From IMG/VR virus record IMGVR_UViG_3300036651_001908, positions 1 through 64,000 of that record: a stretch of DNA of 64,000 bases. One strand, given 5' to 3'. The notes under the pieces are model-generated. The model worked only from the letters and a program-made list of their open reading frames with translations, did no database searches and had not been told where the DNA came from. A program made the position numbers and the translations under genes. Positions 1-61,935 of the stretch are shown piece after piece. Origin of the DNA: a virus. Position 1 is the first letter of the stretch, and every line of letters begins with the position of its first letter.

Positions 1-255
1 AAATGTGTACTACTCCAGAGCCCGCACCTCAGCGGACCATCCAGACGTAGAACTGCATCGTGAGCCACCGGTCGAAATCTTCTTGCCGACTCCCAGGGGC
101 AGGCTTGGTTAACCGACCTAGATACTCCCAGCCGCGCAGTCGATACCGGCTCATCTCGGTGTCTCGCACCACGGCACACTCGTTCGGCGGCTCAGCAGCC
201 ACGCGTAGCACCCCCGGAATGCCATCGTGGCGTCGGATAGAGCGACGAACAGCCC

Positions 256-573
256 CTATTGGGCATCGTCACCCTCTGCGACATTCCCAGAGCCTGATTT
301 GCCCCACCACGCGTGGTCCCCGATGGGCGCTCCGCGCCATGCACCGTCCACCTGGCGCAGTGTTTTGCCCCCGATCGCCTCGGTGTGGGGGTCCTTGCAG
401 ATCGTCTTGCCGTCCACGCTGCGTTGGTGGGCGTCGAACAGCGATATGCCCTCGAAGGTCTCGTGACACTTGGCACAGTGGCCGGTGCGATTGCCCCGCT
501 GACGCCAGACGTGCTCTAGAGAGCATGCGGGGTACTGCACAGCGTTACGCCGGTGGTCATCCATGGTGTACAT
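256..573 (-). CDS. Phage zinc-binding protein (FDxHR-type)
   Basis: Motif HCAKCHETFEGISLFDAHQ. Start placed at ATG 573, 7 nt after TATACT (581-586), consistent with a leaderless start. Confidence 0.65.
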   Translation of the reverse strand: MYTMDDHRRNAVQYPACSLEHVWRQRGNRTGHCAKCHETFEGISLFDAHQRSVDGKTICKDPHTEAIGGKTLRQVDGAWRGAPIGDHAWWGKSGSGNVAEGDDAQ

Positions 574-778
574 ACGGCATAGTATATGCCCAGCGATAGT
601 GGGTAATTGCAGTTTTGGATATGTGATACGATCGATTGCGATCGTGTCGGGTTGAGGTGCATGACCGGTGTGGCATATATGCCCCGGGTGACTCGAAAAA
701 TCCGCAGGTCGGGCTAACTCCACCCCTTCAGTCTCTCGACTTCGGTTCATCCGGCCCGGGTGGGTTCTTGTTACCTCT

Positions 779-806
779 ATAGTACACCCGTCAGCGGTGG
801 TGTCAA
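779..806 (-). promoter_or_regulatory. SigA-like promoter
   Basis: TTGACA-N16-TACTAT on the minus strand. Confidence 0.6.
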
Positions 807-965
807 TAGCACAAACGTTCTAATTTCCTCATTTAGAGTTGCCACCTCGCCGCTCGCGGACAACATTTGAGACCGTGTGGAGAGCCCGATTTGTGAACTG
901 TGTTCGAATGTCGGCACAGAACAGGGCCCGGGAAGATTTCTCCTCCCGGGCCCTAATTCTTCTGC

Positions 966-1355
966 TCAATTCTGGTGGTTCGCCGTCCAGTGCAGCCGGA
1001 ATGCCGCCAGGGTGTCACGCACCTCGCCGCAGCCGGGCTCGGGGCAGATCCACGTGTCGTTCTCGCCCTCGACGGCCTTCGGGATCGGCCGCATGGTGGT
1101 GGCCCAGTCGGCTCGGGCCTGGGGGTTGGCCTGCTCTGCGAGCACTGCCTGAACCACAGCGTCGTCGTGGTCCCTCAGGGCGTCCAGTGCCTCGCGCTGC
1201 ATCCGCGTGGCGCGGTTCAGGACGCCGAATGCGAGGGCGGTGGCCTCCTGAAGATTCTTGATCACCTTCTCCTGCTCTTCGATCGCTCGTCCGGCCTCAG
1301 TGGCTCGTGCGACGATTGCCTGGCGGACGGTGTCGGTCTTCTCGGTGGTGGTCAT
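966..1355 (-). CDS. Coiled-coil protein with C-terminal C2H2 zinc finger
   Basis: RBS GAAGGAGAAGGA, start MTTTEK, motif CPEPGC...HWTANH; followed by a hairpin at 923-954. Confidence 0.75.
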   Translation of the reverse strand: MTTTEKTDTVRQAIVARATEAGRAIEEQEKVIKNLQEATALAFGVLNRATRMQREALDALRDHDDAVVQAVLAEQANPQARADWATTMRPIPKAVEGENDTWICPEPGCGEVRDTLAAFRLHWTANHQN

Positions 1356-1369
1356 GATTCCTTCTCCTT

Positions 1370-1519
1370 CTAAATCTTCTTGCCGTGGAGGGGGCAGGTG
1401 TGGTCGTGGTGCAGCGGGCTGCGCTTCTCGGTGCTGAACTTGGTGTCCAGCACGTGGTAGAGGTCGCACCATCCCTCAGGGGTGGTGGGCCAGACGATGG
1501 GGGCGGCTGCGGTGGTCAT
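1370..1519 (-). CDS. Small hypothetical protein (49 aa)
   Basis: Read manually as MTTAAAPIVWPTTPEGWCDLYH...; RBS GAAGGAG; below the ORF-track cutoff. Confidence 0.65.
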   Translation of the reverse strand: MTTAAAPIVWPTTPEGWCDLYHVLDTKFSTEKRSPLHHDHTCPLHGKKI

Positions 1520-1540
1520 GGTGTGCTCCTTCGGTGGTGG

Positions 1541-1720
1541 TCAGTCCGGGAGGACTTCGGTGATTTCGTGCTCGGGGATGAATGCTCGTGCGCTGTAGAC
1601 CAGGAGGTCGTTCTCGTTCGCGTACTCCAGTGCGTCGTCGTACTCATCGAAGACCATGCTCACGGTGGCTCGGGACTCCCCGACCAGGAATAGGTCCAGG
1701 ATGATTTCGTTGTGGGCCAT
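1541..1720 (-). CDS. Small acidic hypothetical protein
   Basis: MAHNEIILDLF...; RBS GAAGGAG downstream of the module promoter at 1755-1783. Confidence 0.75.
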   Translation of the reverse strand: MAHNEIILDLFLVGESRATVSMVFDEYDDALEYANENDLLVYSARAFIPEHEITEVLPD

Positions 1721-1820
1721 GATTTCTTCTCCTTCGGTGGTGGTTGATACTGCAATGGTACACCTGCCTGGTGGCAAGTGCAAGGGCCGGGAAGAACTAA
1801 ATCTTCCCGGCCCCTGGTGG

Positions 1821-2150
1821 TCAGGCCTTGACTTCGTGCCCGACCACCACGTGAGTCTTGAGGTGGCTGACGAACTCCTCTTCGGTGAGGAACTTCTTGC
1901 CGTCGATCCAGCACGCCTTGGCGTCCGGGCTCGTGATCGTGAGGGTGCCGACCTCGGTGGCCTTGAGCCCCGGGGCCTCGTAAACGAGGGGGAGAACGAC
2001 CTCGGGCACGCCGTCCCAGTAGGGGTCGAACGAGTAGTCGAACGGCTCGCTCGGCATGAGTGCCATAGCGTCGCTGATCATCAGCCCGATGGTGTACGGG
2101 GTGAAGGACTCGTCAACGGTGAGGGCGACGGTGTAGGTCTTGGTGGTCAT
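1821..2150 (-). CDS. Hypothetical protein (array cassette)
   Basis: MTTKTYTVAL...; RBS AAGGAG; promoter TTGCAT-N17-TACCAT at 2189-2217. Confidence 0.8.
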   Translation of the reverse strand: MTTKTYTVALTVDESFTPYTIGLMISDAMALMPSEPFDYSFDPYWDGVPEVVLPLVYEAPGLKATEVGTLTITSPDAKACWIDGKKFLTEEEFVSHLKTHVVVGHEVKA

Positions 2151-2254
2151 GGTTCCTGCTCCTTGGTGGTGGTTGACTTGATACTGCAATGGTACACCCG
2201 CCTAGCGGCGAATGCAAGGGCCAGCAAGATTTAGTTCTTGCTGGCCCTTGGTGG

Positions 2255-2548
2255 TCAGCGCGTGCCGTGCGCCTCGGCGTAGGTGGCTGCGGGAACGTCC
2301 CACACGGGCAGCAACCCGGCAGCCCTGCGGATCACGTTGTCCGTGTCGGATGCGCCCAGCATGCGCACCCGCACGTATGGCTCTAGCACGCTCAGGATGT
2401 ACCGGCGCTCCGGGTGAGCGATCGACACGGTGCGGAAGGCCTCCAGGGCGGGGAAGTAAGCGGGGCCCTCGTGAATCACGGGGCGGGGGGCAGCCGTGTC
2501 GCTGCTGTCCGTAGCGTCCTCGACCATGAATACTTCGGTGGTGGTCAT
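2255..2548 (-). CDS. Hypothetical protein (array cassette)
   Basis: MTTTEVF...; RBS GGAGG; promoter TTGACA-N17-TAAGAT at 2585-2613. Confidence 0.8.
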   Translation of the reverse strand: MTTTEVFMVEDATDSSDTAAPRPVIHEGPAYFPALEAFRTVSIAHPERRYILSVLEPYVRVRMLGASDTDNVIRRAAGLLPVWDVPAATYAEAHGTR

Positions 2549-2710
2549 GATGTCCTCCAGGGTGGTGGTTGATTTGATACTGCAATCTTATGGCGACCAT
2601 GGCAGGCTGTCAAGAGATTTCTCGAAATACAGCAAACTTTCTATAACATACAGCCAGCGCATAGATTCGATTTCGGGCAGGGGCGGTACAACTCCGTCGG
2701 GTTCCCCTTC

Positions 2711-2739
2711 AGTATACACCACACCACGGCTCGGCGCAA
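2711..2739 (-). promoter_or_regulatory. SigA-like promoter with no clear ORF directly downstream
   Basis: TTGCGC-N17-TATACT on the minus strand. Confidence 0.55.
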
Positions 2740-2836
2740 GTGTTATACTCAACTCATGAAGATTTTTCTCGGGTAAGGGGAGGTGGGGTGACCGTACCCT
2801 TGCCTGGGGAGAGGGGGGCCTTTCGGCCCCCCTTGC

Positions 2837-3124
2837 TCAGTGTGCGCTCACGTCCTCCCGGTGATTGGTGCTCCATGCCCAGCCACCGTCGATGGTGGTG
2901 GTCAGGCGCTCAGCGCCGCACTTGCAGCGGGTGAGGAAGTAGCCCTCCTTCACGGGGATGCCGACGGACGTGAAGTGTCCTTCGGGCCACGCGTTGTCTT
3001 CGGTCATGATGTCCTCCTCCTCGCGCTGGTCGGCGTGCTCACCGCAGTAGCCGTCGTACCCTTCGCCGTCGTCCAGGCTGTTGGTGCAGCCGGGGAATCC
3101 GCAGCGGTCGTCATCCTCAAACAT
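2837..3124 (-). CDS. Cys-rich acidic hypothetical protein (possible internal start near 3007)
   Basis: MFEDDDRCGFPGC...YCGEH; RBS GAGGAG. A second GAGGAGG precedes the in-frame MTEDN. Hairpin GGGGGCC-GAAA-GGCCCCC follows the stop. Confidence 0.75.
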   Translation of the reverse strand: MFEDDDRCGFPGCTNSLDDGEGYDGYCGEHADQREEEDIMTEDNAWPEGHFTSVGIPVKEGYFLTRCKCGAERLTTTIDGGWAWSTNHREDVSAH

Positions 3125-3174
3125 GATTTGCTCCTCAGTGGTGGTGGTTGCCTTGATACTGCAATGGTAGCAGA

Positions 3175-3501
3175 CTACTTCACGCTGAACAAGCCCCACG
3201 GTCCAGGTGGTTCTGGATCCTTCTGCTCGGGCTTGCTCGTGCGCCTCCGGCTCGGGGATGCGTTGTAGCGCTCGCGGAGATACGCCTGCCGGTGCTGGCG
3301 GAACTCAGGGTCGGCACGGTACTTCTCGACCCACTTCGCGGCCTTCCGCTTCTTCTGGGCCTCATACTCTGCCGGGTGGTCCTTGCGCCACTGCTCGCGC
3401 CACTGCCGATTGCGCTCCAGCAATGCCTCCTTCTCTTCGGGGCTCATGTTCTGGTAGCGCTCGCGACGCCGATCGGCGCTGCTCTTCTTCTCATTCATCA
3501 T
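3175..3501 (-). CDS. Highly charged R/K/E-rich helical protein
   Basis: RBS AAGGAGG; repeated (Y/W)RE/RQ motifs. Confidence 0.7.
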   Translation of the reverse strand: MMNEKKSSADRRRERYQNMSPEEKEALLERNRQWREQWRKDHPAEYEAQKKRKAAKWVEKYRADPEFRQHRQAYLRERYNASPSRRRTSKPEQKDPEPPGPWGLFSVK

Positions 3502-3587
3502 TCCTCCTTGCTACATGCCGATGCCCCGCCCAAATCTTGTTTGGACGGGGCCCGACGGTGGGTTGGTCTAGGTTCCGATGGTGGTGC

Positions 3588-3818
3588 TCATGAGTGCGCC
3601 TCGATCCAGGCGGCACGCGCGGCGTAGTCGTCAGACTCGAACACGTCCCGGGGCATTTGCACTTCAGTCCAGGACTCCAGGTACTCCTCGAACGTGAAGG
3701 ATGAGTCCCCGATGTCTTCGTAGTTGCCTCGCATGTCGTCGTAGTCGTTCGCCACGTAGGCGACTTCGGGGTCATCGTGCTCGGTAACCCAGACTCGGAC
3801 GGTATCGGTGGTGGTCAT
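3588..3818 (-). CDS. Small acidic hypothetical protein
   Basis: MTTTDTV...; RBS GAGGAGG. Confidence 0.8.
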   Translation of the reverse strand: MTTTDTVRVWVTEHDDPEVAYVANDYDDMRGNYEDIGDSSFTFEEYLESWTEVQMPRDVFESDDYAARAAWIEAHS

Positions 3819-3843
3819 GGTGTCCTCCTCAGGACGGTGGTGG

Positions 3844-4077
3844 TTACTCGGTGGGGAACATGCTGGCCCAGCATGCGGGGTGGGTGCCGCTGATCAGCGT
3901 TTCGCGCTCTTCGGCGGTCCAGGTGGGGAACACGTCTTGCGTGTACTCGCCCGCCTGCCAGCGGGTGTACTCGTCGTGAGTCATTCCGATGTGCGTGCCC
4001 CGGTGGCAAAGCGGGCACACCCGGATCACGATGTGCAGGTTCGGGCTGATACATGAGGTGCAGGTGGTGGTTGTCAT
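3844..4077 (-). CDS. Cys-rich hypothetical protein, leaderless
   Basis: ATG is 6 nt after TACCAT; CTSC, CPLC and ERETLISGTHPACW motifs. Confidence 0.8.
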   Translation of the reverse strand: MTTTTCTSCISPNLHIVIRVCPLCHRGTHIGMTHDEYTRWQAGEYTQDVFPTWTAEERETLISGTHPACWASMFPTE

Positions 4078-4155
4078 ACTTCGATGGTAGCACCTTCAGC
4101 CTGACATGGCAAGGGCCCTGAAGAGAAAATCTTCAGGGCCCTTCTAGGGGTAGGC

Positions 4156-4479
4156 CTAGAGGCGGATGCTGTACACCCGGGTGAGTAGGGCGGTCCATGA
4201 GCACGCGTAGTGCATGGCGCTCGCTCGCTTGGTGCGAGGGTCGATGGTCCAGGTGCTCCACATGTCCGGGTGCAGCGAGCCTTCCGCGATTGCCGATAGA
4301 GGCTTGCCACAGTGGTCGCACGGGCGGTTGCCGATTGCCTTGGTGGCATTGCTCACGTGCAGCATGTACGGCTTGCGACGGCGGTACATGGACGCCTTGA
4401 CGCCTGCCAGGTTGTCAGCCTCCGGATAGGCGTGCGCGCCGTTTGTCCACGGCTTGCGGTAGTTGGGCTTGGTGGTCAT
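4156..4479 (-). CDS. Hypothetical zinc-binding protein
   Basis: MTTKPNY...CDHC...HYAC; ATGA overlap with the upstream gene. Confidence 0.7.
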   Translation of the reverse strand: MTTKPNYRKPWTNGAHAYPEADNLAGVKASMYRRRKPYMLHVSNATKAIGNRPCDHCGKPLSAIAEGSLHPDMWSTWTIDPRTKRASAMHYACSWTALLTRVYSIRL

Positions 4480-4607
4480 TTCTTGCTCCCGGTGGTGTGA
4501 GTGTGCGAGTAGAACGCGGCGTTCGTCGGGAATGCCTTGCCACAGAACTTGCAGGGCAGCGGAGTCGTCAGGGGCTTGGGGCCCTGGACCTTCTTCGATT
4601 GCTTCAT
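4476..4607 (-). CDS. Mini C2H2 zinc-finger protein (43 aa), leaderless
   Basis: CKFCGKAFPTNAAFYSHTHT; promoter TTGACA-N17-TACTGT-N6-ATG. Confidence 0.7.
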   Translation of the reverse strand: MKQSKKVQGPKPLTTPLPCKFCGKAFPTNAAFYSHTHTTGSKK

Positions 4608-4722
4608 ACTGCGACAGTAGTCCTGCCATGGCTGTATGTCAACCCCTGTTCGCAAATCCCAGCAAACATACAGGTTCAGATTGCCTCTTGCGCACGTACT
4701 GCCATGGGTGTACGATTGCAGT

Positions 4723-4983
4723 ATGAACAACACAGAGGCGCGGAGCGCCATCCTCTATTACCGCGGCGACACCCTGGTCCGCCGTGCCGTCAACGCAATC
4801 CCGACAGAGTCTGTCGCGGATGCGCTCGCCACCGCTGCATCGCACGTATGGGAAGAGGCGGCCGAACAAGTCTTCGTCGGCGTCCCGGTCACCATGCAAG
4901 AGGCAGCGTGGGGCACGTCCCTCGAATTCACGTCCCCCATCGGGCCCGTGAAGATGGTCGGGACGGCTCTACTCAACCGCTGA
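4723..4983 (+). CDS. Hypothetical protein in the inverted array module, leaderless
   Basis: TTGCGC(4688)-N17-TACGAT-TGCAGT-ATG; MNNTEARS...; hairpin after the stop. Confidence 0.8.
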   Translation: MNNTEARSAILYYRGDTLVRRAVNAIPTESVADALATAASHVWEEAAEQVFVGVPVTMQEAAWGTSLEFTSPIGPVKMVGTALLNR

Positions 4984-5193
4984 ACACTCACCTAGCCACC
5001 GGGGGTCGGGACACCGACCCCCCTTAGGTGTGCCTAGAACAAGATTTGCGCCACTAGCCAGGCGCTCGCCGCGATCGTGCCCCATGCCACTAGCGCGAGC
5101 GGGACTGCGACCCGGATAGTCTGTCGATTCATCACGCCGGGCAGAGTAGAGGGCCTGAGGAAGATTTTCCTCAGGCCCTCAGTGTCGGGCGGG

Positions 5194-5502
5194 TCAGAGC
5201 AGCGCGTAGCGCACCGCGCTCTGGTGCTTGCTGGTGCTCACGCTGTACTTGTGATCCGGGATGGTCCAGCCGTCCGGGGTGTGCCACGCGATCGGGGTGT
5301 GATACGAGTAAACGACGTAGTCAACGGCGTTCACGTCCAGGTAGAACTTGTCCCGCCACAGTCGCGGCAGGGCACCGACGGTGCCCTCGTTCGGGCCCCC
5401 GCGGAAGTTGGGCTCACCGTACGCGTTGCCCCCGGCGCTGAACGGCTGACGGGCCACGATGCGATCGGCGGCGGTGCGGATGTTGGTGGCGGTGGTGGTC
5501 AT
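5194..5502 (-). CDS. Conserved-looking actinophage early protein
   Basis: YVVYSYHTPIAW...YSVSTSKHQ motif; RBS GGAGG; hairpin at 5149-5180. Confidence 0.8.
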   Translation of the reverse strand: MTTTATNIRTAADRIVARQPFSAGGNAYGEPNFRGGPNEGTVGALPRLWRDKFYLDVNAVDYVVYSYHTPIAWHTPDGWTIPDHKYSVSTSKHQSAVRYALL

Positions 5503-5612
5503 GATGTCCTCCAGGGTGGTGGTTGGTTGATACTGCAATGGTAGCCTACTGCGGCCGGACATGCAAGAGGGCCAGGGAAGATAATTCTTCTTCCCTGGCC
5601 CTAGGCGGATGG

Positions 5613-5894
5613 TCAGCGCTCTTCGATCCTCAGGTCCCCCCTCAGAACGGTGTAGAACCGTTGCCCCGGGTAGCGGTGGCGCCATTCGATCACTTCGGCG
5701 CGGAGTGCCTTCCAGGTGGTGGTTTTGGCGGAGTGAGTCACGGTCGATTCGGTGACCAGGACCATATCGGCCCCGTGCTCACTGACCAGAACCTCACCCC
5801 CGGCCTCGAAGAATCGTCGGGCGGTGCCGACGGTGGTGCGCGTGGCCCAAACGGGGGCGGTGGTGGTTTCGGTGGTGGTGGTTGATTCGTTCAT
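5613..5894 (-). CDS. Hypothetical protein, leaderless
   Basis: MNESTTTTETT...; TTGCAT-N17-TACTAT-N6-ATG. Confidence 0.8.
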   Translation of the reverse strand: MNESTTTTETTTAPVWATRTTVGTARRFFEAGGEVLVSEHGADMVLVTESTVTHSAKTTTWKALRAEVIEWRHRYPGQRFYTVLRGDLRIEER

Positions 5895-5977
5895 ACTGCG
5901 ATAGTACACCCACGCGCCCGGACATGCAAGAGGGCCAGGGAAGATAATTCTTCTTCCCTGGCCCCCGATTGGCTAGA

Positions 5978-6538
5978 TCAGGTGTGCGAGCAGCGAGTGC
6001 CTCCCGCCCACACCCGCACATCCCCGGTGCTGAAGTCACGAGGGACTGCCTTCAGCGAGGTGCCGCGGGTGGTCAACTTGCCCGTCTTCAATTCGACCGG
6101 GACCCCATGGATGAGGTAGGCCACCACATACGTTTCGCCGGGGTAGTTCCCGAATACAAGCAGCGAGCCCGGCTCATCCGCGTTGAATTGGCACGGCGTG
6201 CGCACGCCCGAATAGATTTCCGCGGCGAGCGCCAGAGCGCTGGTGGTGAGCGATGGTGCGGCCCCGGGCGTACGCGTCGAACGGGTCGAACGGGTGCGAG
6301 TCGAACGGGTGCGGGTCGAACGGGTGCGGTGGGCCACGGGGATCGGGGCAGGGGCGGCATTCGGAGTCGCACCGCCCGCGATTGCCGCTTGGATTTGGGC
6401 CAGGACGGATGAGTACGAAACCGTGCCGCTGGCCCCGGTCGGTGTCCCGGCGTCAGCAGCGCTGGCGCCGATCGTTAGTCCGCCGACGATGATGCATGCG
6501 CCGGTAGCAAGAGCGGCGATGCGGGTGGTGGTCTTCAT
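5978..6538 (-). CDS. Putative secreted/membrane-anchored protein with RSTRT repeats
   Basis: Signal-peptide-like N-terminus (MKTTTRIAALATGACIIVGGLTIGASAA); RBS GAGGAGG. Confidence 0.7.
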   Translation of the reverse strand: MKTTTRIAALATGACIIVGGLTIGASAADAGTPTGASGTVSYSSVLAQIQAAIAGGATPNAAPAPIPVAHRTRSTRTRSTRTRSTRSTRTPGAAPSLTTSALALAAEIYSGVRTPCQFNADEPGSLLVFGNYPGETYVVAYLIHGVPVELKTGKLTTRGTSLKAVPRDFSTGDVRVWAGGTRCSHT

Positions 6539-6650
6539 GATTTGTCCTCCTCAGGACGGTGGTGGTTGATACTGCGATGGTACACCCGCGAGCGGGCAAA
6601 CGGAAGGGCCCGGAAGAACTAAAATCTTCTTCCGGGCCCCGGGGTGGTGG

Positions 6651-6830
6651 TCAGTCGCGCGCTAGCGCCATGCCATCGTCGTCCGCTCGCGCGGAGTCGA
6701 TTTCGTAGTCCATGGTGTCCCTCCCTTCGGTGTCGCGGTGGTGGTCTGCGATGAGTGCTGCCACCGCGGGGATGGCGACAATCAGGGTGAGAATCGCGCC
6801 CCACGTGTCAGCGCTGATCAGGTGCATCAT
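6651..6830 (-). CDS. Small membrane protein (59 aa)
   Basis: Read manually as MMHLISADTWGAILTLIVAIPAVAALIA...; ATGA overlap with 6827..7069. Confidence 0.6.
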   Translation of the reverse strand: MMHLISADTWGAILTLIVAIPAVAALIADHHRDTEGRDTMDYEIDSARADDDGMALARD

Positions 6831-7069
6831 CGGGCCAGCCCTTCACGAGCGGCGATTTCGGCCTGACGCGCGTATCCCCGGGAGTACGCCCGGAAGATTT
6901 CGAGCGTCCGGGGCTGGCCCACGGGGACATTCCCCACTAGATCGCGGATGATGGCGCTCATGGTCGGTGCCATGGTCGCCCCGATCAGGTAGGCCCGTGC
7001 GCCCGCATGGCGGGCGGTGTCTAGTTCGACGGTGGTGGCGGTGGTTTCGGTGGTGGTTGATTGCTTCAT
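6827..7069 (-). CDS. Hypothetical protein, leaderless
   Basis: MKQSTTTETT...; module promoter at 7076-7104. Confidence 0.8.
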   Translation of the reverse strand: MKQSTTTETTATTVELDTARHAGARAYLIGATMAPTMSAIIRDLVGNVPVGQPRTLEIFRAYSRGYARQAEIAAREGLAR

Positions 7070-7150
7070 ACTGCGATGGTACGCCCATCCGGCCTGACAT
7101 GCAAGAGGGCCCGGAAGATTTCTCTCCCGGGCCCGATGGTCGGATGGTGG

Positions 7151-7405
7151 TCAGGACACGTACGCCTCTGCGAGTCGCAGGATGCGGTGGTAATCCTCCT
7201 CAGCGGCGATGCGCGCCTCCTGAGCGGCGCGGTAGGCCTCCTCGTTGTCTCCCCATCCGAAGTGATCTTCGGTGGCGCAGGCATCGTACAGAGCATCCGC
7301 GAGGATGATCACGCGGGCGGTGAGGATGGCGGCGACCATCCCGTGGCGGGTGTCCGCCTGGCGGACATAGGGGGTGGCCATCACGGTGGCGGTGTGTGCG
7401 TTCAT
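7151..7405 (-). CDS. Hypothetical protein, leaderless (MNAHT group)
   Basis: TTGCAT-N17-TACCAT-TGCAGT-ATGAACGCACAC. Confidence 0.75.
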   Translation of the reverse strand: MNAHTATVMATPYVRQADTRHGMVAAILTARVIILADALYDACATEDHFGWGDNEEAYRAAQEARIAAEEDYHRILRLAEAYVS

Positions 7406-7484
7406 ACTGCAATGGTACACCCGCATCCCCGGGCATGCAAGGGCCCCCGGAAGATTTCTCCCGGGGGCCCTAGGTGGGTGGTGG

Positions 7485-7844
7485 TCAGCGCTGCGAGAGT
7501 GCCATGGTCCAAACGTTTCGGTGCAGCGGCCCAAACGGTCGTTCGGCCGAAACGTGCTCGGTGCCGCGGAAGGGGTCGAGCCCGTGCGCAGTCTCCCGGG
7601 CGAACCTACGGTCTAGGTAGGCCTGCCCGTGCGCCTCTGCCTCTTCCCGGGTGGCGTATTCGCGGGTGGTGACTGCCAGCGTGCCCCACGCCTTGACGCT
7701 GAGGGTGATGGTGCAGACCCACGATCCGCCGCGCCCGGCGTGCGATTCCGGGAGGGACAGCCCCGTGCCGTAGTCAAAGCAGCGCTCGCCCGCGGCAGCG
7801 CCACAGGTGTCGCAGTGGGTGAGGGTTTCGGTGTGTGCGTTCAT
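7485..7844 (-). CDS. Hypothetical protein with CxxC motif, leaderless (MNAHT group)
   Basis: MNAHTETLTHCDTCGAAAGERC...H; module start. Confidence 0.75.
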   Translation of the reverse strand: MNAHTETLTHCDTCGAAAGERCFDYGTGLSLPESHAGRGGSWVCTITLSVKAWGTLAVTTREYATREEAEAHGQAYLDRRFARETAHGLDPFRGTEHVSAERPFGPLHRNVWTMALSQR

Positions 7845-7960
7845 ACTGCGATGGTACACCCGTTCCGGCCGATTGCACCCGTGGGTTTCAAGAAACTTCC
7901 GGGCGCATGGGAAGGGCCCCGGCGATTTGCCGGGGCCCTAGGTGGGTGGGTGGTCGGTGG

Positions 7961-8131
7961 TCAGCCCAACAGGTACGGGTCCCGGATGCTGCTGATCAGG
8001 TGGCGCGGGCCACCGCTCAACAGGCGACGGGCGATAAATCGGCCGCGGCGGGTGGTGACCAGGTAGCGGGCGGTGGCCAGCATTTCGCGCGTGCTGGCGA
8101 CGGGGGCGGTGGTGGTGGTGTGTGCGTTCAT
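7961..8131 (-). CDS. Small basic hypothetical protein, leaderless (MNAHT group)
   Basis: The ORF fills the space between two modules exactly. Confidence 0.65.
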   Translation of the reverse strand: MNAHTTTTAPVASTREMLATARYLVTTRRGRFIARRLLSGGPRHLISSIRDPYLLG

Positions 8132-8240
8132 ACTGCGATGGTACACCCGTTCCGGCCGATTGCACCCGTGGGTTTCAAGAAACTTCCGGGCGCATGGGAA
8201 GGGCCCCGGCAGTGCCGGGGCCCTAGTGGTCGGTGGGTGG

Positions 8241-8528
8241 TTAGTTGTTGCTGGCAGGATCTAGCACGCTGTCACGCGTGCACGCGGGCCCGCCCGGGGC
8301 CTGGCAGGACACAGAGTGCCCCACGGTGGGTGCCGGGGTGCTGGCGTGCCCCACGGCGTAGCCTGCCCCGAAGATTCCCCCCCAGAGGATCAGGGTGGCC
8401 AGGATCACTGCCCAGAGGGGCACGTACACTTCCCGGTCGGTGGTGGGGATGCCACCCTCAGGGGGCAAACCATAGCGCGCCATGGCGCGCGCGGTGCGGG
8501 TTTCTTCGGTGGTGGTGTGTGCGTTCAT
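8241..8528 (-). CDS. Small membrane protein, leaderless (MNAHT group)
   Basis: Hydrophobic segment VYVPLWAVILATLILWGGIFGAGYAVG. Confidence 0.7.
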   Translation of the reverse strand: MNAHTTTEETRTARAMARYGLPPEGGIPTTDREVYVPLWAVILATLILWGGIFGAGYAVGHASTPAPTVGHSVSCQAPGGPACTRDSVLDPASNN

Positions 8529-8633
8529 ACTGCGATGGTACACCCGCCCACGGGTTTGGGCAACCCTGCCCTAATTCATGTTCCGGGCGCATGGGAAGGG
8601 CCCCGGCAGTGCCGGGGCCCTAGTGGTCGGTGG

Positions 8634-8837
8634 TTAGTTCCGGGTGATCCGGCAGGCGATGGGTTCGGCGTACCATCCGTGCCCGTCGGGCCATTCCGCC
8701 CACGCCTCCATGCGGGCCCCGTATCCAAGTGAGCCTTGCACGAGCGGCGGGACGTTAGCGGCGTCCATGTCCGCGATGGTTCCGCCGATGATGGTGGTGG
8801 TGGTGCCGCGGGTGAGAGTGTAGGTGCGTGCGTTCAT
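8634..8837 (-). CDS. Hypothetical protein, leaderless (MNART variant)
   Basis: Module start; the ORF ends just before the next hairpin. Confidence 0.7.
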   Translation of the reverse strand: MNARTYTLTRGTTTTIIGGTIADMDAANVPPLVQGSLGYGARMEAWAEWPDGHGWYAEPIACRITRN

Positions 8838-8950
8838 ACTGCGATGGTAGCACCGATCCGCTCGCTTGCACCCGCGGGTTTCGAGAAACTTCCGCGCGCA
8901 TGGGAAGGGCCCGGCATCACTGCCGGGCCCGGATGGTCGGTGGGTGGTGG

Positions 8951-9127
8951 TCAGGCCTGCCAGCATCCCATGGTGTCGCAGAGGGGGCACGTACCGGGGT
9001 GGCAGTGATGCGTGGCCACCCCCGCTCGGTGGTCTGCCCGCGCCCAGGTGACCAGCACGGCGAGGAAGAGACAGGACAGGCTGACGATGTACAGGACCAT
9101 GGCTAGGTCGGTGGTGTGTGCGTTCAT
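8951..9127 (-). CDS. Small membrane protein with Cys cluster, leaderless (MNAHT group)
   Basis: LAMVLYIVSLSCLFLAVLVTWA; C-terminal HCHPGTCPLC. Confidence 0.7.
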   Translation of the reverse strand: MNAHTTDLAMVLYIVSLSCLFLAVLVTWARADHRAGVATHHCHPGTCPLCDTMGCWQA

Positions 9128-9200
9128 ACTGCGATGGTACGCCTGGCAGCGCTCCCTGTCTACGTGCACGCGCCCACGCGCCCACGCGCGCGCGTGAAGC

Positions 9201-9256
9201 CTGGCGCTGCTGCTGGCGCTGCTGCTGGCGCTGCTGCTGGCGCTGCTGCTGGCGCT
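9201..9256. repeat. Tandem 12-bp repeat (CTGGCGCTGCTG) x4.7
   Basis: Directly visible; preceded by the palindrome CACGCGCGCGCGTG at 9183-9196. Confidence 0.95.
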
Positions 9257-9492
9257 CGCCGCTAGGTTTATTCCGGCTGGCGCGGGGTGGTCGCGCGGGT
9301 GGGCGTGGTCGGTCGTGCGCGCCGCGGGACCAGTGACCAACTGAAATGTGTCATATAGTGGCCCACTGGAAAAATTCTCCAGCCGCTGCCAGCCTCAAAT
9401 GTGCTATATGCGGTCGGTGACGATCAGCCAGGTGGCGAACGCCATCAACCCGAGGATGAACAGCACCCAGACGACCGAGAAGACCGTGTCCA

Positions 9493-9723
9493 TCACTCAC
9501 TGTCCGGATACTGCCAGCGCTTCCACGCCTCGGTGGGCACGTCGGGATGCGTCTGGTCGTACTGCCGGTCGGCTTCCTCTGCCATCTCCTCGTACTTGGC
9601 GCGCAGGCCCTCTTCCCAGGCCGCCAGTTCGCGTCGCTCCAGTAGAGCCCGACGGCGTACGTCCTCCTCCTTGGCCCAGAGCAGATCGCTGATGATGCCC
9701 CACTGACGCTTCGTGAATGCCAT
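9493..9723 (-). CDS. Hypothetical protein
   Basis: RBS GGGAGG; followed by a 29-aa hydrophobic ORF at 9404..9493. Confidence 0.7.
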   Translation of the reverse strand: MAFTKRQWGIISDLLWAKEEDVRRRALLERRELAAWEEGLRAKYEEMAEEADRQYDQTHPDVPTEAWKRWQYPDSE

Positions 9724-9762
9724 GGCTTGTCCTCCCGTTGATTTGGAGTTATACTACACGCC

Positions 9763-10074
9763 ATGACGGATATAGCAACCAAGATCGGCCGCCCGAACCT
9801 CAGTGGTGGCTTCGAGACCCAGTCCCCGTCCATGACCTTCCGGATGCCCCAGGTGATGTGGGACGAGATGGAGGAGATGGCCCGGCAGGAGGGCGTGCAC
9901 CGCAATCAGATCGTGCGTGCCGCGCTGGACGCGTACCTGCATGGCCGGACGGTGGCTCCGCAGCCGCTGTCCGAGTATGCGATCGTCGCGAAGGCGAAGG
10001 CGCGGAGGAAGGCGGTCGTGGAGGCCGCGCAGGCGGAAAAGGGCGGGACTCCGTCGGGGGAAGAGGCCTCGTGA
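9763..10074 (+). CDS. Ribbon-helix-helix (CopG/Arc-like) DNA-binding protein
   Basis: GRP...SMTFRMPQVMWDEMEEMARQEGVHRNQIVRAALDAYL; promoter TTGTCC-N17-TATACT-N7-ATG. Confidence 0.8.
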   Translation: MTDIATKIGRPNLSGGFETQSPSMTFRMPQVMWDEMEEMARQEGVHRNQIVRAALDAYLHGRTVAPQPLSEYAIVAKAKARRKAVVEAAQAEKGGTPSGEEAS

Positions 10075-10186
10075 TCCACCTGAGAGGGATCTGGGGCTGG
10101 GACGGCTACCTGCACTGGTACGCGTGCCTGTGCTCGTTCGGGGCCAACCACACGGAGAAGGAACTCAACACCTTTCAGGAGGCGCG

Positions 10187-10420
10187 ATGAACGTCGGGAA
10201 GTTCCTGCTGTTCTGGCTGGTCGCGGTTGTGACCGCGGTGGGGCTGACGGCGCTCTGGTACCTGCTGATGGTGGCCTGCGTGATCTGGTGCCATGACCCG
10301 GCCGGGAAGGCGCTGTCCATCGGGATGAGCCTCGGTCTACTCGTGCCGTTCGGGGCCACCGCGGCGATCCTGGCGACGGCCGACGACTTCGCGAGCGAGC
10401 CGAAGGAAACGAAGAAATGA
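10187..10420 (+). CDS. Membrane protein
   Basis: Two hydrophobic helices; RBS GGAGG. Confidence 0.7.
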   Translation: MNVGKFLLFWLVAVVTAVGLTALWYLLMVACVIWCHDPAGKALSIGMSLGLLVPFGATAAILATADDFASEPKETKK

Positions 10421-10749
10421 GAGTGCTCTTCCTGGTCCGGGGCTGGGGCATCTTCTTCGTGGGGATGCTGCTCTTCGGGGCGTTCTGCATGGTCTACCTG
10501 GTAGCGGTCGCGGCTGTCATCGTGGCGCTGTGTATAGCGGTTGTCATGGCGGTGGTGGTCGGCATCCAGGCGGCGCGGACGCAGCGCCGCATTTCCCGTA
10601 TTAGGCGGGACCGGATCCTTCGGGAGTTCGCTGCGTTTCACCTGGAAAAGTCGATGGTAGAAGATGAGCCGACGCAGGGGCTGGACCCGGAAACGTATGA
10701 GCCCGGGGTCTCTTCTGCATATGTGCAGAATCGAGGTGTTGCCCTGTGA
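10417..10749 (+). CDS. Membrane protein
   Basis: Hydrophobic N-terminal half; ATGA coupling. Confidence 0.7.
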   Translation: MRVLFLVRGWGIFFVGMLLFGAFCMVYLVAVAAVIVALCIAVVMAVVVGIQAARTQRRISRIRRDRILREFAAFHLEKSMVEDEPTQGLDPETYEPGVSSAYVQNRGVAL

Positions 10750-10967
10750 TCGACCGTGATGAACTCTGCCAGGTGCTGCGCGGCTGGCTGCATGGCGGCA
10801 TGCACATGTGGACCGGTGCTGCGGCTGACGCCATCCTCGCGCTGGACAAGCGTGACGAGCGCGACATCCCGAAGCAGTGCCCGAAGTGCAAGCAGTGGTG
10901 CGTCTACGACGGCTGGGACTGGTCCCACGCGTACGGCGACGTAGGGATTGGATCCTGCAATGGATGA
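10746..10967 (+). CDS. Small Cys-containing hypothetical protein
   Basis: GTGA coupling; CPKC motif. Confidence 0.6.
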   Translation: MIDRDELCQVLRGWLHGGMHMWTGAAADAILALDKRDERDIPKQCPKCKQWCVYDGWDWSHAYGDVGIGSCNG

Positions 10968-11298
10968 CACCGACCCGTTCCGCGACGTTGCCTGGCAGCG
11001 CTTCCGTGGCCGCATCCACCCCGAGAGCAAGTGCGAGGGGCAGGCCTGCTGCATCCACCATCCCTCCGACCATCCGCTGGCGACCGCGCCCCTGAACTGG
11101 CGGGCCGACCGCTGGCTGATGGAGCGGATCTGCAAGCATGGTGTCGGTCACCCCGACCACGACGACCTGGCATTCAAGCAGAGGAGCATGGGCCCTGATG
11201 TCTACGAGCGATACGCCTTCGAGTGGCACGGATGCGACGGTTGCTGCTCTGATTGGCACCTTGAAGGCGTACGGGATTCCGATGGCGCCGGAGGGTGA
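10960..11298 (+). CDS. Cys/His-rich phage protein
   Basis: CCIHHPSDH...MERICKHGVGHPDHD...HGCDGCC pattern, recurrent in actinophages. Confidence 0.75.
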   Translation: MDDTDPFRDVAWQRFRGRIHPESKCEGQACCIHHPSDHPLATAPLNWRADRWLMERICKHGVGHPDHDDLAFKQRSMGPDVYERYAFEWHGCDGCCSDWHLEGVRDSDGAGG

Positions 11299-11433
11299 GT
11301 TCGACCTGGCGACCAACCGGCCGCTCGGTCCTCCGGAGCATGAGCACGACTGGGGCTATGACCGATCGCTCTGTGCCGTGTGCGACGCACAGCACTACTT
11401 CTGCCTGATCTGCGGCGAGACGGAGACCTGCTC

Positions 11434-11733
11434 ATGAGTTACGCGCGTTGGGGCGATGGCTCCTCTGTCTACGTCTTCGCGGACGCCTCCGGTGGGGTGG
11501 CCTGCTGTGGCTGCTCGCTGGATGAGTCCGTCTACGAATCGGACGGCGTCGATTTCCTCGGGATCGAGCACAAGAAGGGTGAGCGGATGGCTTTCGGTGC
11601 CACCGTGCACTTCTTCGACGTGGACTCCCTCATCGAACACTTCCAGAAGCACCGCGACGCCGGTGATTTCGTTCCCAAGTACCTGTTCGACCCCGAGACT
11701 TACGACAAAGAAGATTTCGAGGCCCACCGATGA
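11434..11733 (+). CDS. Hypothetical phage protein
   Basis: MSYARW...SVYVF...CCGC; ATGA coupling. Confidence 0.7.
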   Translation: MSYARWGDGSSVYVFADASGGVACCGCSLDESVYESDGVDFLGIEHKKGERMAFGATVHFFDVDSLIEHFQKHRDAGDFVPKYLFDPETYDKEDFEAHR

Positions 11734-11863
11734 TCGCACTCGCCGCTTGCCTGAACGCTGTGATCATCATGATGATCCTCATAGTGATCTTGGGCACCGC
11801 TCTCGTCCTGGGACTTTGGAGGATGCGGCGCAAGGCCGCCCAGACGGAAGCGAGACAACGAGC

Positions 11864-12076
11864 ATGAGCGAACCGACCAACGCGTTCCCCCACGGGCTCC
11901 CGATGCACAATCAGGACTACGCGGACTGGCTAGAACGTCTAGTGATCGGTTTCCCGAGCCAGGAGACCGCCAACGAACTGACCCGGATGACCGGGCAGGA
12001 CTTCATCCGCATCTTCGGGCTGGCTCTAGGGATCTTGAAGAAGGACTACTACCCACCGATCAAAGGAGTGGACTGA
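11864..12076 (+). CDS. Hypothetical protein
   Basis: Part of a translationally coupled chain that also includes 11282..11437, 11730..11867 and 12076..12231. Confidence 0.6.
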   Translation: MSEPTNAFPHGLPMHNQDYADWLERLVIGFPSQETANELTRMTGQDFIRIFGLALGILKKDYYPPIKGVD

Positions 12077-12287
12077 TGACCATCGGTGACTACATCTACC
12101 CCTGCGACGCCGGAACCGGCAGGCCCATGGGGTACCACAACTTCACTGCCACACCGGGTGGGGTCGTCTGCTCGCTCTGCGGCCAGGTGCCGGGGCAGAT
12201 CAAGACGATCTGGAATTCGTCGCACACCTAGACAGCGGCCTCAAATGTGTGTTATACTGAAGTATCACACGAGAGGAGGTAGCAACC

Positions 12288-12434
12288 ATGACGCTTGAAC
12301 ATCTGCTCTACGCTTCGGCATCCAGCCCGAGCGCACTTCAGAAGGCGGTCGCTGAGGTTCCGGAGACGGAACTCCGCGGGCTGCTCACCGAGGCGGTCAC
12401 CCGGCTCGAAGCGGCCGAACCCGCCTGGCTCTAG
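12288..12434 (+). CDS. Small hypothetical protein (48 aa)
   Basis: Extended -10 TGTTATACT, RBS AGGAGG, and a hairpin at about 12447-12480 after the stop. Confidence 0.6.
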   Translation: MTLEHLLYASASSPSALQKAVAEVPETELRGLLTEAVTRLEAAEPAWL

Positions 12435-12487
12435 CACCACAGCAAGACGCCCCGACCAAACAAGATTTGGCCGGGGCGTTCCTGCGT

Positions 12488-12676
12488 CTAGTCCTCGTCT
12501 TCGACCAGGATCTTCATGGCCGGAGCGAAGGGGTCCAGCCAGCACCGCACGGTGCCGTCCTTGAGACGCCGGATGCGGACGCCGCAGCCGATGTCCCGAG
12601 CCCGAGCACAGGTGGTCTGGATGAGTTCGAGGTTGCGCGAGTGCTGCTCTAGAAGGCCTTGCTCGAAGGGCTGCAT
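12488..12676 (-). CDS. Hypothetical protein
   Basis: MQPFEQGLL...; RBS AGGAGG. Confidence 0.6.
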   Translation of the reverse strand: MQPFEQGLLEQHSRNLELIQTTCARARDIGCGVRIRRLKDGTVRCWLDPFAPAMKILVEDED

Positions 12677-12803
12677 CAGTGACCTCCTGGGTTCACGATG
12701 ATGATGACCTGTTGGCCGATGGGCTTGCCGTTGTCTCCACGACCGACTCCGCACCACGATGGGTCGTACGGGTGCGGTGGTCCGTCGCAGTGGCACATGG
12801 TCA

Positions 12804-15419: not shown

Positions 15420-15420
15420 C

Positions 15421-15500: not shown

Positions 15501-15572
15501 CGGCGGTGCACCCCGTGCTGGCGCTCCTTGGTAGAACCCTTGCAGGAGTCCCAAGAACAGCGAACAGTGCAT

Positions 15573-61923: not shown

Positions 61924-61935
61924 GAGGTGTAAGCC

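Follow-up and report, generated by a model that had tools for sequence, protein, structure and literature searches.

The window analysed here covers the opening 64 kb of a virus record of 123,755 bp in IMG/VR (IMGVR_UViG_3300036651_001908, called G000 below), and the record is estimated to be 99% complete. Between 900 and 9300 it contains an array of 17 near-identical promoters leading into different small genes, and the sequences that connect one gene to the next, which we call joints, are conserved while the genes are not. This architecture, its statistics and the lack of conservation of the cargo are read directly from the DNA. We consider it likely that the array is the multi-promoter early-gene region of a lytic-type phage of ∼124 kb, whose host would be a GC-rich Gram-positive (actinobacterial) species.

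A family of near-identical promoters

The core of the promoter family is the sequence TACYATYGCAGTAT. Allowing up to two mismatches, it matches 17 times in the window (13 exact, three with one mismatch and one with two), where 100 shuffled sequences gave a mean of 0.40 and a maximum of three matches. The minus strand carries 16 of them, between 1747 and 9139, and the plus strand has a single copy, at 4711–4724. The complete record has 13 exact copies, all on the reverse strand inside 1747–9139, and a control pattern gave none. Beyond the window, the record has three weaker copies of the unit (121596, 120962 and 115849). Within the array the density is 17 copies in 8.4 kb, i.e. one promoter per 300–500 bp. 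The units (U1 to U16 on the minus strand, and UP on the plus strand) and the genes that they serve are collected in Table 1.

When the copies are aligned on the predicted start of transcription, there is almost no variation from −12 to +4 (TACCAT YGCAGT AT[G/C]AA). The −10 hexamer conforms to TANNNT in all 17 units, and in 12 of them a TTG-type −35 hexamer is placed exactly 17 bp upstream. Actinobacterial housekeeping promoters have a −10 of the form TANNNT, and many actinobacterial mRNAs are leaderless. A simple consensus scan, which is uninformative for this organism, recovered only four promoters out of 17 and missed all of the GGGCC hairpins described below. This failure arises because the scan demands nine of 12 matches and a T-run.

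An original prediction, made from the window, was of about 17 self-contained expression cassettes in which conserved joints, typically with a −35 exactly 17 bp from the −10, flank unrelated cargo. The contrast between joints and cargo is borne out, with 17 copies of the core against 0.4 expected and just two of 276 pairs of cargo proteins related at E ≤ 0.05. The 17 promoters are there too, but they are less self-contained than was supposed, since they serve 24 open reading frames (ORFs), five of the units are operons of two or three genes, and two ORFs lack a promoter of their own. The 17-bp spacing applies to 12 or 13 of the 17 units, and not to the remainder.

Predicted leaderless and leadered units

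The units fall into two classes according to the base at +3. Eleven of the 17 have G at this position, and in all 11 an ORF of 43–119 amino acids is open from +1. As the ATG falls on the predicted first transcribed base, the mRNA should be leaderless. The other six have C at +3 and no 5′ ATG, and in each of these a GGAGG-type Shine-Dalgarno sequence and an ATG follow 25–32 nucleotides downstream. The three outlying copies of the unit obey the same rule.

The leaders of the units with C at +3 are rich in A and C, and that of U10 is nearly identical to that of U14. The tract TCAACCACCACC is translated (as Ser and Thr codons) in U7 and U9, and lies in the untranslated leader of U8, U10, U14, U15 and U16. 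Given that the same tract may be translated or untranslated, it is a nucleic-acid element and not a protein motif. The (ACC)n tracts that had been noted in the joints are indeed concentrated in the array; there are 35 minus-strand copies of ACCACCACC in the genome, 29 of which lie within 900–9300. The sequence CCACC stands immediately after the stop codon in 14 of 23 minus-strand ORFs. According to the review PMC9031893, citing Martin-Farmer and Janssen (1999), CA repeats placed just after the start codon enhance both leaderless and leadered translation.

Predicted leaderless starts are not confined to the array. We scanned the genome for a −35, a −10, an interval of 6 nucleotides and an ATG or GTG opening an ORF of at least 30 amino acids. 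This gave 15 pairs of promoter and leaderless ORF, against 0–3 in 20 shuffles, so leaderless expression appears to be a habit of this phage genome. Six such pairs outside the promoter family (at 22997 on the plus strand of the window, and in G000 at 104642 on the plus strand and 109187, 111943, 116689 and 121998 on the minus strand) are predicted from their sequence to form a second, looser promoter class.

Hairpins in the joints

Values of dG for the hairpins were obtained from single-sequence folds. The minus-strand RNA of 900–9300 contains 25 hairpins with a dG of −14 or stronger, and the first 10-kb bin of the genome contains 26, compared with 5–14 in each other 10-kb bin. Seventeen hairpins are intergenic, just past a stop codon, with dG values of −18.9 to −31.9 kcal/mol and inner stems that differ between units. 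A GGGCC…GGCCC hairpin lies directly upstream of 12 of the 16 minus-strand promoters. It is thus a feature of the typical unit, as predicted, but not of U1, U11, U13 and U14. In eight units the 3′ arm of the hairpin abuts the −35 (GGCCC-TTGCAT). A hairpin with a dG of −23 or stronger precedes 13 of the 16 promoters here, compared with four of 25 in a related record, G001, and none of six in Microbacterium phage Magritte (see below). A search of Rfam with 1–12000 at E ≤ 0.1 gave no match, and the array is without tRNA.

By far the most over-represented 7-mers of the genome are AAATCTT and its complement AAGATTT, with 36 and 26 occurrences against 0.7 and 1.0 expected, respectively. Nine of the 17 hairpins in the array have one of them in the loop, the orientation varying, and elsewhere they occur also in coding and ribosome-site contexts. 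Positions in the window of 7-mers of this type include 933, 1799, 2226, 3532, 4127, 5161, 6622, 7115 and 7451. The relatives bear AAGATTC-type repeats near gene starts.

The cargo genes

The cargo consists of 24 ORFs of 32–186 amino acids, all with a G+C content at third codon positions (GC3) of 0.75–0.93. They are unrelated to each other; the two pairs of proteins that match at E ≤ 0.05 do so over short stretches. Among the 19 of the 24 ORFs that were scanned with Pfam there were no matches above the cut-off, and weak zinc-finger-like matches only. Five proteins match PHROG families of unknown function (g9, g10, g12a, g16b and the product of the flanking ORF 256–750). Homologues of g10 are present in Streptomyces, Gordonia and Microbacterium phages, and that of Streptomyces phage Wakanda is in a compact left-end operon in which no cassette structure is visible by eye.

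Several of the cargo proteins are very acidic (isoelectric point, pI, of 4.1–4.5), others are very basic (pI 10–12), Cys/His-rich, or short and hydrophobic. Early host-directed phage proteins have a similar composition, which proves nothing. The roles of the cargo are presumed to lie in host takeover or counter-defence. The only cargo gene that is duplicated is g8, with a paralogue at G000 120372–120995 (66.7% amino acid identity). Both proteins look secreted, with a hydrophobic N-terminus, a Thr/Arg/Ser-rich linker and a conserved C-terminal half with Cys, and each gene is preceded by a leadered promoter of the family.

A model for the expression of the array

We propose that the RNA polymerase of the host, carrying the housekeeping sigma factor, would initiate at each of the 17 promoters. 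It would read the TTGCAT-like −35, the 17-bp spacer, the TACCAT −10 and the YGCAGT discriminator, and start at the A placed 7 nucleotides after the −10. In 11 units this would be the A of the ATG, giving a leaderless mRNA on which the ribosome would begin at the 5′ end, and the first codons (AAC GCA CAC ACC ACC ACC) would provide an unstructured A/C-rich tract. In the other six the single G-to-C difference at +3 would abolish the 5′ ATG, and the A/C tract would become part of a leader of 25–32 nucleotides before the GGAGG and ATG. The GC-rich hairpin after most cargo genes would end or stabilise the transcript. The outcome would be a chain of short, independent, strongly expressed transcripts for a set of about 24 proteins that are small and evolve fast. 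Common descent, together with recombination or gene conversion among the copies, would account for the uniformity of the joints, with selection keeping positions −12 to +5 constant. Within this scheme we infer where transcription starts, that the host sigma factor is used, that the timing is early and that termination occurs at the hairpins.

A number of observations weigh against this reading. The −35 is poor in five units, three of which have GGTGCA and the other two TAGACA and TTCCGT. The array sequence is present in no RNA run among the sequencing runs surveyed. The hairpins are followed by one or two T only. Mycobacterial RNA polymerase needs a U-tract for termination in vitro, so these hairpins may be weak terminators, or elements of RNA stability that protect the 3′ end. 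The ORFs 5034–5132 and 3175–3501 sit behind hairpins without a recognisable promoter, and some read-through is therefore needed. The actinobacterial assignment of the putative host comes from the nearest cultured relatives. Lastly, the phage has a gene of the sigma-70 family at G000 84634–85365 (region 2, 24.7 bits summed), and the six other predicted leaderless promoters of the genome have discriminators quite unlike YGCAGT.

The last two of these points each suggest an alternative. The promoters might be read by the phage's own sigma factor, and would then constitute a middle class rather than the early class of the host housekeeping sigma. A homologue of the sigma gene with 41% identity is present in G001, and lineage-specific promoter families are usual for phage-encoded sigma factors. 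However, a −35 of TTGCAT or TTGACA, a spacing of 17 bp and a TANNNT −10 fit a housekeeping sigma, and alternative or extracytoplasmic function (ECF)-type sigmas usually read hexamers unlike these. In addition, the cargo is small, orphan and fast evolving, as are the early genes of SPO1 and T4. Because the hexamers look to be of the housekeeping type we think it improbable that the phage sigma is used. A search for a T7-type RNA polymerase (PF00940) gave no match, but neither did its control, so this negative carries no weight.

The second alternative concerns the discriminator. Since the six other predicted leaderless promoters have unrelated discriminators, generic promoter function fails to explain the invariant YGCAGT. 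Between −12 and +5 the core carries 2.0–2.4 bits at most positions, compared with 0.1–0.5 bits per position in the spacer between −35 and −10, and the sequences of the hairpins differ. It might be that the core also binds a phage regulator, or that the discriminator is adapted to an initiation factor of the host, so that the whole class is switched together, for example in early-gene shut-off. The promoter family of G001 likewise conserves positions that are not contacts (the 17-nucleotide spacer, in 25 copies). Yet no candidate for the regulator was identified. gP and the other cargo proteins have no DNA-binding domain above the cut-off, and the ribbon-helix-helix match of 9763–10074 falls below the Pfam cut-off. 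The core has no clear dyad symmetry by eye, and the recent spread of one promoter copy with gene conversion could equally keep it uniform. A role of this kind is thus possible but rather doubtful. Two explanations suggest themselves: selection for something more than generic promoter function (for example a regulator site or special kinetics of initiation) preserves the core, or gene conversion has homogenised it.

The phage and its relatives

The ends of the record, which is labelled linear, overlap by 361 bp at 99.4% identity (1–361 and 123394–123754), so the assembly closes on itself. Through this end repeat the minus-strand block of small genes continues from the array into 115–122 kb, where the three weaker unit copies are found. 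The G+C content is 60–66%, and that of the genome as a whole is ∼62%. Among the products of the genome are a portal of the Mu type, a major capsid protein of the E type and a GH25 lysin, together with clamp-loader and sliding-clamp-like proteins. It also encodes nucleases in line with the SbcCD-like and RecB-like proteins of the original prediction: an Mre11/SbcD-like nuclease gene is at 21508–22467, the counterpart of the annotated MRE11 gene of Magritte, and a RecB-like PD-(D/E)XK nuclease gene is at 25625–26488.

The nearest cultured relatives infect Actinobacteria, in keeping with the actinophage of the original prediction. The terminase has 59% identity with its counterpart in Microbacterium phage Magritte (OR553905) and ∼33% identity with those of Streptomyces phages of ∼130 kb. 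The capsid protein has 157 related stretches in IMG/VR, the best being 72% identical, and many come from records of 124–146 kb. Each of six soil-metagenome runs contains 91–98% of the words sampled from the array. Judged by these sequences, the array belongs to the large genome of an uncultivated, actinophage-like soil phage.

Record G001 (124,313 bp) has core genes in common with G000 at 35–72% identity; the ORFs of 1–21 kb have no counterpart in it. It contains 25 copies of TTGCAC-(conserved 17 nucleotides)-TAGGCT, followed by Shine-Dalgarno leaders. In the 43-kb part of Magritte that was searched there are at least six promoter copies, of which the majority lead into a conserved leader that includes a small hairpin, and the array cargo has no counterpart in the two parts of Magritte compared. 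A P-loop ATPase gene is common to G000, G001 and Magritte, and lies in or beside each promoter-rich region. The regions in G001 and Magritte thus resemble the array in having many copies of one promoter with a TTGCAC-like −35 and 17-bp spacing in a region of small genes. They differ in that their promoter sequences cannot be aligned with the joints here, are 0.6–6 kb apart, have Shine-Dalgarno leaders and mostly lack an upstream hairpin. It is the density of promoters, the regular coupling to hairpins and the leaderless starts that are special to the array. Records G002 and G005 are 100% identical. A 14-mer repeated in G002 has at most one match in each of G006, G007 and G008, which to judge from their sequences probably have no promoter-rich region.

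The original prediction looked to related phages for the same joint, but a scan of 25 related IMG/VR records, Magritte and three public collections yielded no relative that has it. The core motif is in none of the 25 records, and occurs once in Magritte with one mismatch. The exact core pattern gave scattered single matches and no array in the public collections (three stretches of viral_contigs, 47 of genome_contigs and 90 of metagenome_contigs); one marine contig has two matches. A near-identity search with the array DNA against 50,697 phage records gave no match, and searches for relative loci by terminase or by the cargo protein g10 found none.

Comparison with known systems

The original prediction likened the array to the PeSL elements of T4-type phages and to the host-takeover module of SPO1, and both comparisons are apt (PMC2839356, PMC4122927 and PMC6873191). 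A PeSL is a sigma-70-like early promoter plus stem-loop, repeated in the hyperplastic regions of T4-type phages (Arbiol et al. 2010, PMC2839356). These elements are described as sites of indels between close relatives, and as forming mini-circles (PMC2839356; Comeau et al. 2014, PMC4122927). Like the PeSL, the joint couples a strong housekeeping-type early promoter to a stem-loop (here at 12 of the 16 minus-strand promoters), is repeated many times among small orphan genes that are not conserved between related phages, and separates one or a few ORFs from the next. However, the present genome is actinophage-like, with a Mu-like portal and an E-type capsid, rather than that of a T4-like myovirus. 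Its stem-loops are GC-rich and lack a U-tract, 11 of the 17 units are predicted to be leaderless, and the element includes an invariant discriminator and start region with flanking (ACC)n tracts. Moreover, indels and mini-circles are experimental findings in T4-type phages, whereas the array is known from sequence alone. Because the lineage differs and the defining evidence of recombination is missing, the array is not a PeSL in the strict sense.

The SPO1 module comprises 26 small early genes in short operons, with the promoters and ribosome sites of highly expressed genes, as set out in PMC6873191. Each of the two is a region of ∼10 kb in which some 24–26 small early genes are divided among many short operons that have their own strong promoters and strong translation signals. 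A difference is that the genes of SPO1 use Shine-Dalgarno sites. Several SPO1 products have proven roles in host shut-off, whereas the cargo here is known from its sequence, and the SPO1 module is proven to lie in a terminal repeat, at which only a step in contig depth at ∼9.3 kb hints here (the ends overlap by 361 bp). We know of no report of SPO1 promoters that are near-identical over the discriminator and start.

The early region of the Streptomyces phage phiC31 reportedly has multiple conserved early promoters, and terminators without poly-U tails. It would thus be an actinophage early region with repeated similar promoters and hairpin terminators that lack a 3′ U-tract, as in the array, although its early promoters are said to be unlike the housekeeping consensus and fewer than here. 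The array also resembles an integron in having a row of unrelated small genes between conserved joints that form hairpins. But there is no integrase in the record, each unit has its own promoter, and the joints are promoter and terminator elements rather than attC sites. The absence of an integrase and the presence of a promoter in every unit mean that the array is not an integron.

A search of the literature for PeSL-like cassettes, with supplementary files outside its scope, returned work on T4-type phages and cyanophages only, and one for promoter arrays in actinophages returned nothing relevant. We conclude that the array is akin to the regions of early genes in other big phages, and does not represent a new category of system.

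Mosaic joints and possible exchange of cargo

The identity between joints has sharp limits, at the stop codon to one side and near codon 5 to the other. For many units the upstream part, the promoter spacer and the downstream part do not have the same nearest partner. U10 is closest to U9 in its upstream part (35/65) and to U14 in its downstream part (36/41), yet the upstream parts of U10 and U14 have almost nothing in common. U7 is nearest to U6 upstream and to U9 downstream, U6 similarly has different partners on its two sides, and U4 is nearest to U5 upstream and to the copy at 115849 downstream. The joints most alike are those of neighbours (U4/U5, U9/U10, U6/U7 and U15/U16). Public contigs are interrupted at the repeated joints, and 7859–8604 is spanned by none of the pieces listed, so the order of U3 to U5 is taken from the IMG/VR assembly alone.

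In the soil runs X2, X4, X5 and X6 there are contigs that stop matching at the edges of joints (for example at 6627, 7422, 8096 and 8818) and continue into other DNA. Nine of nine run-on motifs tested are absent from G000, and thus the same joints exist beside other DNA in those soils. Three other run-ons were recognised by eye as the genome's own distant copies.

It may be that the joints are PeSL-like substrates of homologous recombination, at which enzymes of the phage or host insert, delete and swap cargo between phages. This would add to the function in expression and not replace it, and the array would evolve as a gene-sampling platform. The sharp edges of the joints around unrelated cargo, their mosaic nature, the likeness of neighbours and the run-on contigs are all consistent with such exchange, as are the lack of counterparts in G001 and Magritte and the presence of RecB-like and Mre11-like nucleases. 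There is a precedent in the indels bounded by PeSLs and the mini-circles of T4-type phages (in the accounts of PMC2839356 and PMC4122927).

On the other hand, no genome with the same joints and a different order of cargo was found in the 25 IMG/VR records, Magritte or the three public collections. Unitig-type contigs break at repeats by construction, and metagenome joints with a short side are often due to repeats or to other organisms. The joints could also have become mosaic through gene conversion inside a single genome, the cargo staying unexchanged. There is no tyrosine or serine recombinase in the genome; the record gave no match to Phage_integrase or Resolvase, with positive controls. 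The only comparable close pair of records, G009 and G010, overlaps only at 57–102 kb of G009, which excludes the promoter-rich region and lies outside the repeat-rich 22–32 kb of G009. These two are 99.5% identical around the capsid gene, and differ by five indels in 57–73 kb of G009. One was inspected, and proved to be the insertion of an HNH-like, Cys-rich gene (G009 61647–62122, compared with ∼4300 in G010) between tightly packed genes, with no flanking promoter or hairpin joint.

Taking these together, exchange at the joints is a real possibility, with the balance tilting somewhat against it, and a dedicated capture system is far less probable than that. The proposal of capture and shuffling made in the original prediction is only partly supported, by the mosaic joints and the soil contigs that connect joints to foreign DNA; no relative with the same joints was found in the records and collections searched, and no recombinase in the genome. 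A further extension is that the joint might be a portable plug-in expression module that lets related soil phages trade and test small early genes without an integrase. It would comprise the hairpin, the −35, the −10, YGCAGT-AT(G/C)AA and (ACC)n, with the base at +3 setting leaderless or leadered translation, and recombination between joints would be aided by microhomology of the flanking (ACC)n tracts. This we consider unlikely.

The tracts suggest one other possibility, that the hairpin plus promoter is a small mobile element inserting into A/C-rich junctions, with a CCACCACC repeat on each side. Two operon junctions without a joint, g12a/g12b and g16a/g16b, have the form stop-CCACCACC-(GTCCTGAGGAGGAC or GAAGGAGCAC)-ATG. 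Joints with a leader have the hairpin and promoter between the first tract and a second one, ahead of the same Shine-Dalgarno sequence. In the U8 joint the order is stop-CCACCACC-(hairpin, promoter)-CAACCACCACC-GTCCTGAGGAGGAC-ATG, and deletion of the part between its two tracts would recreate the g12a/g12b junction. The frequent CCACC after stop codons would also fit. However, the unit has no terminal inverted repeats and no transposase, and has no copies outside the early region or in other genomes of the three public collections. Furthermore, the tracts vary in length, and have possibly just been selected as unstructured flanks. We regard a mobile element as highly improbable. The presence of a tract on both sides of the hairpin and promoter could reflect either recombination guided by microhomology or selection for unstructured flanks.

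Features of the array and its surroundings

Just upstream of the first unit, at 9201–9256, there is a perfect tandem repeat of 12 bp (CTGGCGCTGCTG, 4.7 copies). It is followed by a non-coding stretch richer in A+T that runs to ∼9400, where the public contigs are cut. In four soil runs contigs over 1–9139 have ∼1.3–2 times the depth of those over 9261–14000, a reading of depth that is to be taken with caution. The step near 9.3 kb could correspond to a long terminal repeat holding the array, or to strains that share the array. Just past the other end of the array, a TTGACA-16-TACTAT promoter at 779–806 precedes a 164-amino acid ORF (256–750) with a phage FDXHR zinc-binding domain (41.7 bits, above the cut-off).

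Elsewhere in the window, a cluster of three tRNA genes lies at 15343–15656, one of them called with a four-base anticodon (acaa) and no amino acid assigned. A single ORF of 3361 amino acids occupies 42462–52547, between the portal and head-accessory genes and the lysin, and is 38% identical over 1560 amino acids to an ORF of G001. Beyond the window, a repeat of 54-bp period (a 12-mer occurring five times at 54-bp steps) is at G000 73809–74036 within an ORF of 1782 amino acids (69991–75339) that, judged by position, is probably the tape measure.

Table 1. Units, genes and hairpins of the array, in order from U1. aa, amino acids; dG in kcal/mol; +1, predicted start of transcription.
Feature	Position	Strand	Description
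U1 promoter	9127..9162	−	TAGACA-17-TACCAT-CGCAGT-A (+1, 9127); no GGGCC hairpin; GC-rich inverted repeat 9167–9196
g1	8951..9127	−	58 aa; predicted leaderless, ATG at +1; hydrophobic segment, Cys/His-rich tail
U2 joint	8837..8930	−	hairpin 8907–8930 (dG −23.4), spacer, GGTGCA-17-TACCAT-CGCAGT-A (+1, 8837)
g2	8634..8837	−	67 aa; predicted leaderless
U3 joint	8528..8621	−	hairpin 8597–8621 (dG −25.2), TTGCCC-17-TACCAT-CGCAGT-A (+1, 8528)
g3	8241..8528	−	95 aa; predicted leaderless; one hydrophobic segment
U4 joint	8131..8224	−	hairpin 8200–8224 (dG −25.2), GGTGCA-17-TACCAT; −35 plus spacer equal to U5 at 23/23
g4	7961..8131	−	56 aa; predicted leaderless; pI 11.9
U5 joint	7844..7939	−	hairpin 7913–7939 (dG −26.4), GGTGCA-17-TACCAT-CGCAGT-A (+1, 7844)
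g5	7485..7844	−	119 aa; predicted leaderless; weak phage zinc-finger match, below Pfam cut-off
U6 joint	7405..7473	−	hairpin 7438–7473 (dG −31.8) abutting TTGCAT-17-TACCAT-TGCAGT-A (+1, 7405)
g6	7151..7405	−	84 aa; predicted leaderless
U7 joint	7069..7134	−	hairpin 7107–7134 (dG −25.2), TTGCAT-17-TACCAT-CGCAGT-A (+1, 7069)
g7a	6827..7069	−	80 aa; predicted leaderless; stop overlaps g7b start (ATGA)
g7b	6651..6830	−	59 aa; N-terminal half hydrophobic, tail acidic
U8 joint	6539..6639	−	hairpin 6606–6639 (dG −26.6), TTCCGT-17-TACCAT-CGCAGT-A (+1, 6570), leader ATCAACCACCACC..GAGGAGG, ATG at 6538
g8	5978..6538	−	186 aa; hydrophobic N-terminus, signal-peptide-like by eye
U9 joint	5894..5966	−	hairpin 5930–5966 (dG −29.8), TTGCAT-17-TACTAT-CGCAGT-A (+1, 5894)
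g9	5613..5894	−	93 aa; predicted leaderless; phrog_14125 (unknown function)
U10 joint	5503..5602	−	hairpin 5568–5602 (dG −27.8, close to that of U9), TTGCAT-17-TACCAT-TGCAGT-A (+1, 5531), leader
g10	5194..5502	−	102 aa; phrog_32689
Hairpin after g10	5149..5180	−	dG −28.0; no family promoter behind
g10b	5034..5132	−	32-aa hydrophobic ORF; no promoter of its own; weak gene call
Hairpin between convergent g10b and gP	5001..5022	.	dG −18.9; could serve both strands
UP	4688..4723	+	sole plus-strand copy; TTGCGC-17-TACGAT-TGCAGT-A (+1, 4723); back to back with U11
gP	4723..4983	+	86 aa; predicted leaderless; sole plus-strand gene of the array
U11 promoter	4607..4642	−	TTGACA-17-TACTGT-CGCAGT-A (+1, 4607); no upstream hairpin
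g11a	4476..4607	−	43 aa; predicted leaderless; weak C2H2 zinc-finger match, below cut-off
g11b	4156..4479	−	107 aa; start overlaps g11a stop; pI 10
U12 joint	4077..4143	−	hairpin 4111–4143 (dG −25.7), TTGCCA-17-TACCAT-CGAAGT-A (+1, 4077)
g12a	3844..4077	−	77 aa; predicted leaderless; 5 Cys; phrog_20898
g12b	3588..3818	−	76 aa; pI 4.1; linked to g12a by TAA-CCACCACC-GTCCTGAGGAGGACACC-ATG, without hairpin or promoter
Hairpin after g12b	3523..3551	−	dG −21.3; no family promoter behind
g12c	3175..3501	−	108 aa; very basic, pI 10.1; own GGAGG, no recognisable promoter
U13	3125..3192	−	TTGTTC-17-TACCAT-TGCAGT-A (+1, 3157), leader; overlaps g12c end; no hairpin
g13	2837..3124	−	95 aa; acidic; 5 Cys
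Hairpin after g13	2812..2833	−	dG −21.5
U14	2549..2613	−	TTGACA-17-TAAGAT-TGCAGT-A (+1, 2578), leader
g14	2255..2548	−	97 aa
U15 joint	2151..2250	−	hairpin 2215–2250 (dG −28.4), TTGCAT-17-TACCAT-TGCAGT-A (+1, 2182), leader
g15	1821..2150	−	109 aa; acidic
U16 joint	1721..1816	−	hairpin 1781–1816 (dG −30.7), TTGCAC-17-TACCAT-TGCAGT-A (+1, 1748), leader
g16a	1541..1720	−	59 aa; pI 4.1
g16b	1370..1519	−	49 aa; phrog_25281
g16c	966..1355	−	129 aa
Last array hairpin	920..957	−	dG −31.9

Implications

The array extends the composite design of promoter and terminator cassettes, which in the literature searched was found only for T4-type phages, to a large group of soil phages related to those of Microbacterium and Streptomyces. 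It is in addition a natural experiment on leaderless translation, in which 11 predicted leaderless and six leadered units with the same promoter and A/C tract differ at +3. This contrast gives a testable rule for the choice of actinobacterial mRNA between the leaderless and leadered modes.

The joint offers a ready-made part for the genetic manipulation of Actinobacteria, combining a strong promoter, a start and an insulator, and the 24 small orphan proteins make a compact list of candidates for functions in host takeover or counter-defence. Should the joints mediate exchange, the six high-depth soil runs would allow the turnover of cassettes to be watched in nature. And if the joint were a portable expression module through which phages trade genes, the array would amount to a PeSL-type platform for sampling genes in the manner of an integron, and no such platform has been described in this group of phages.

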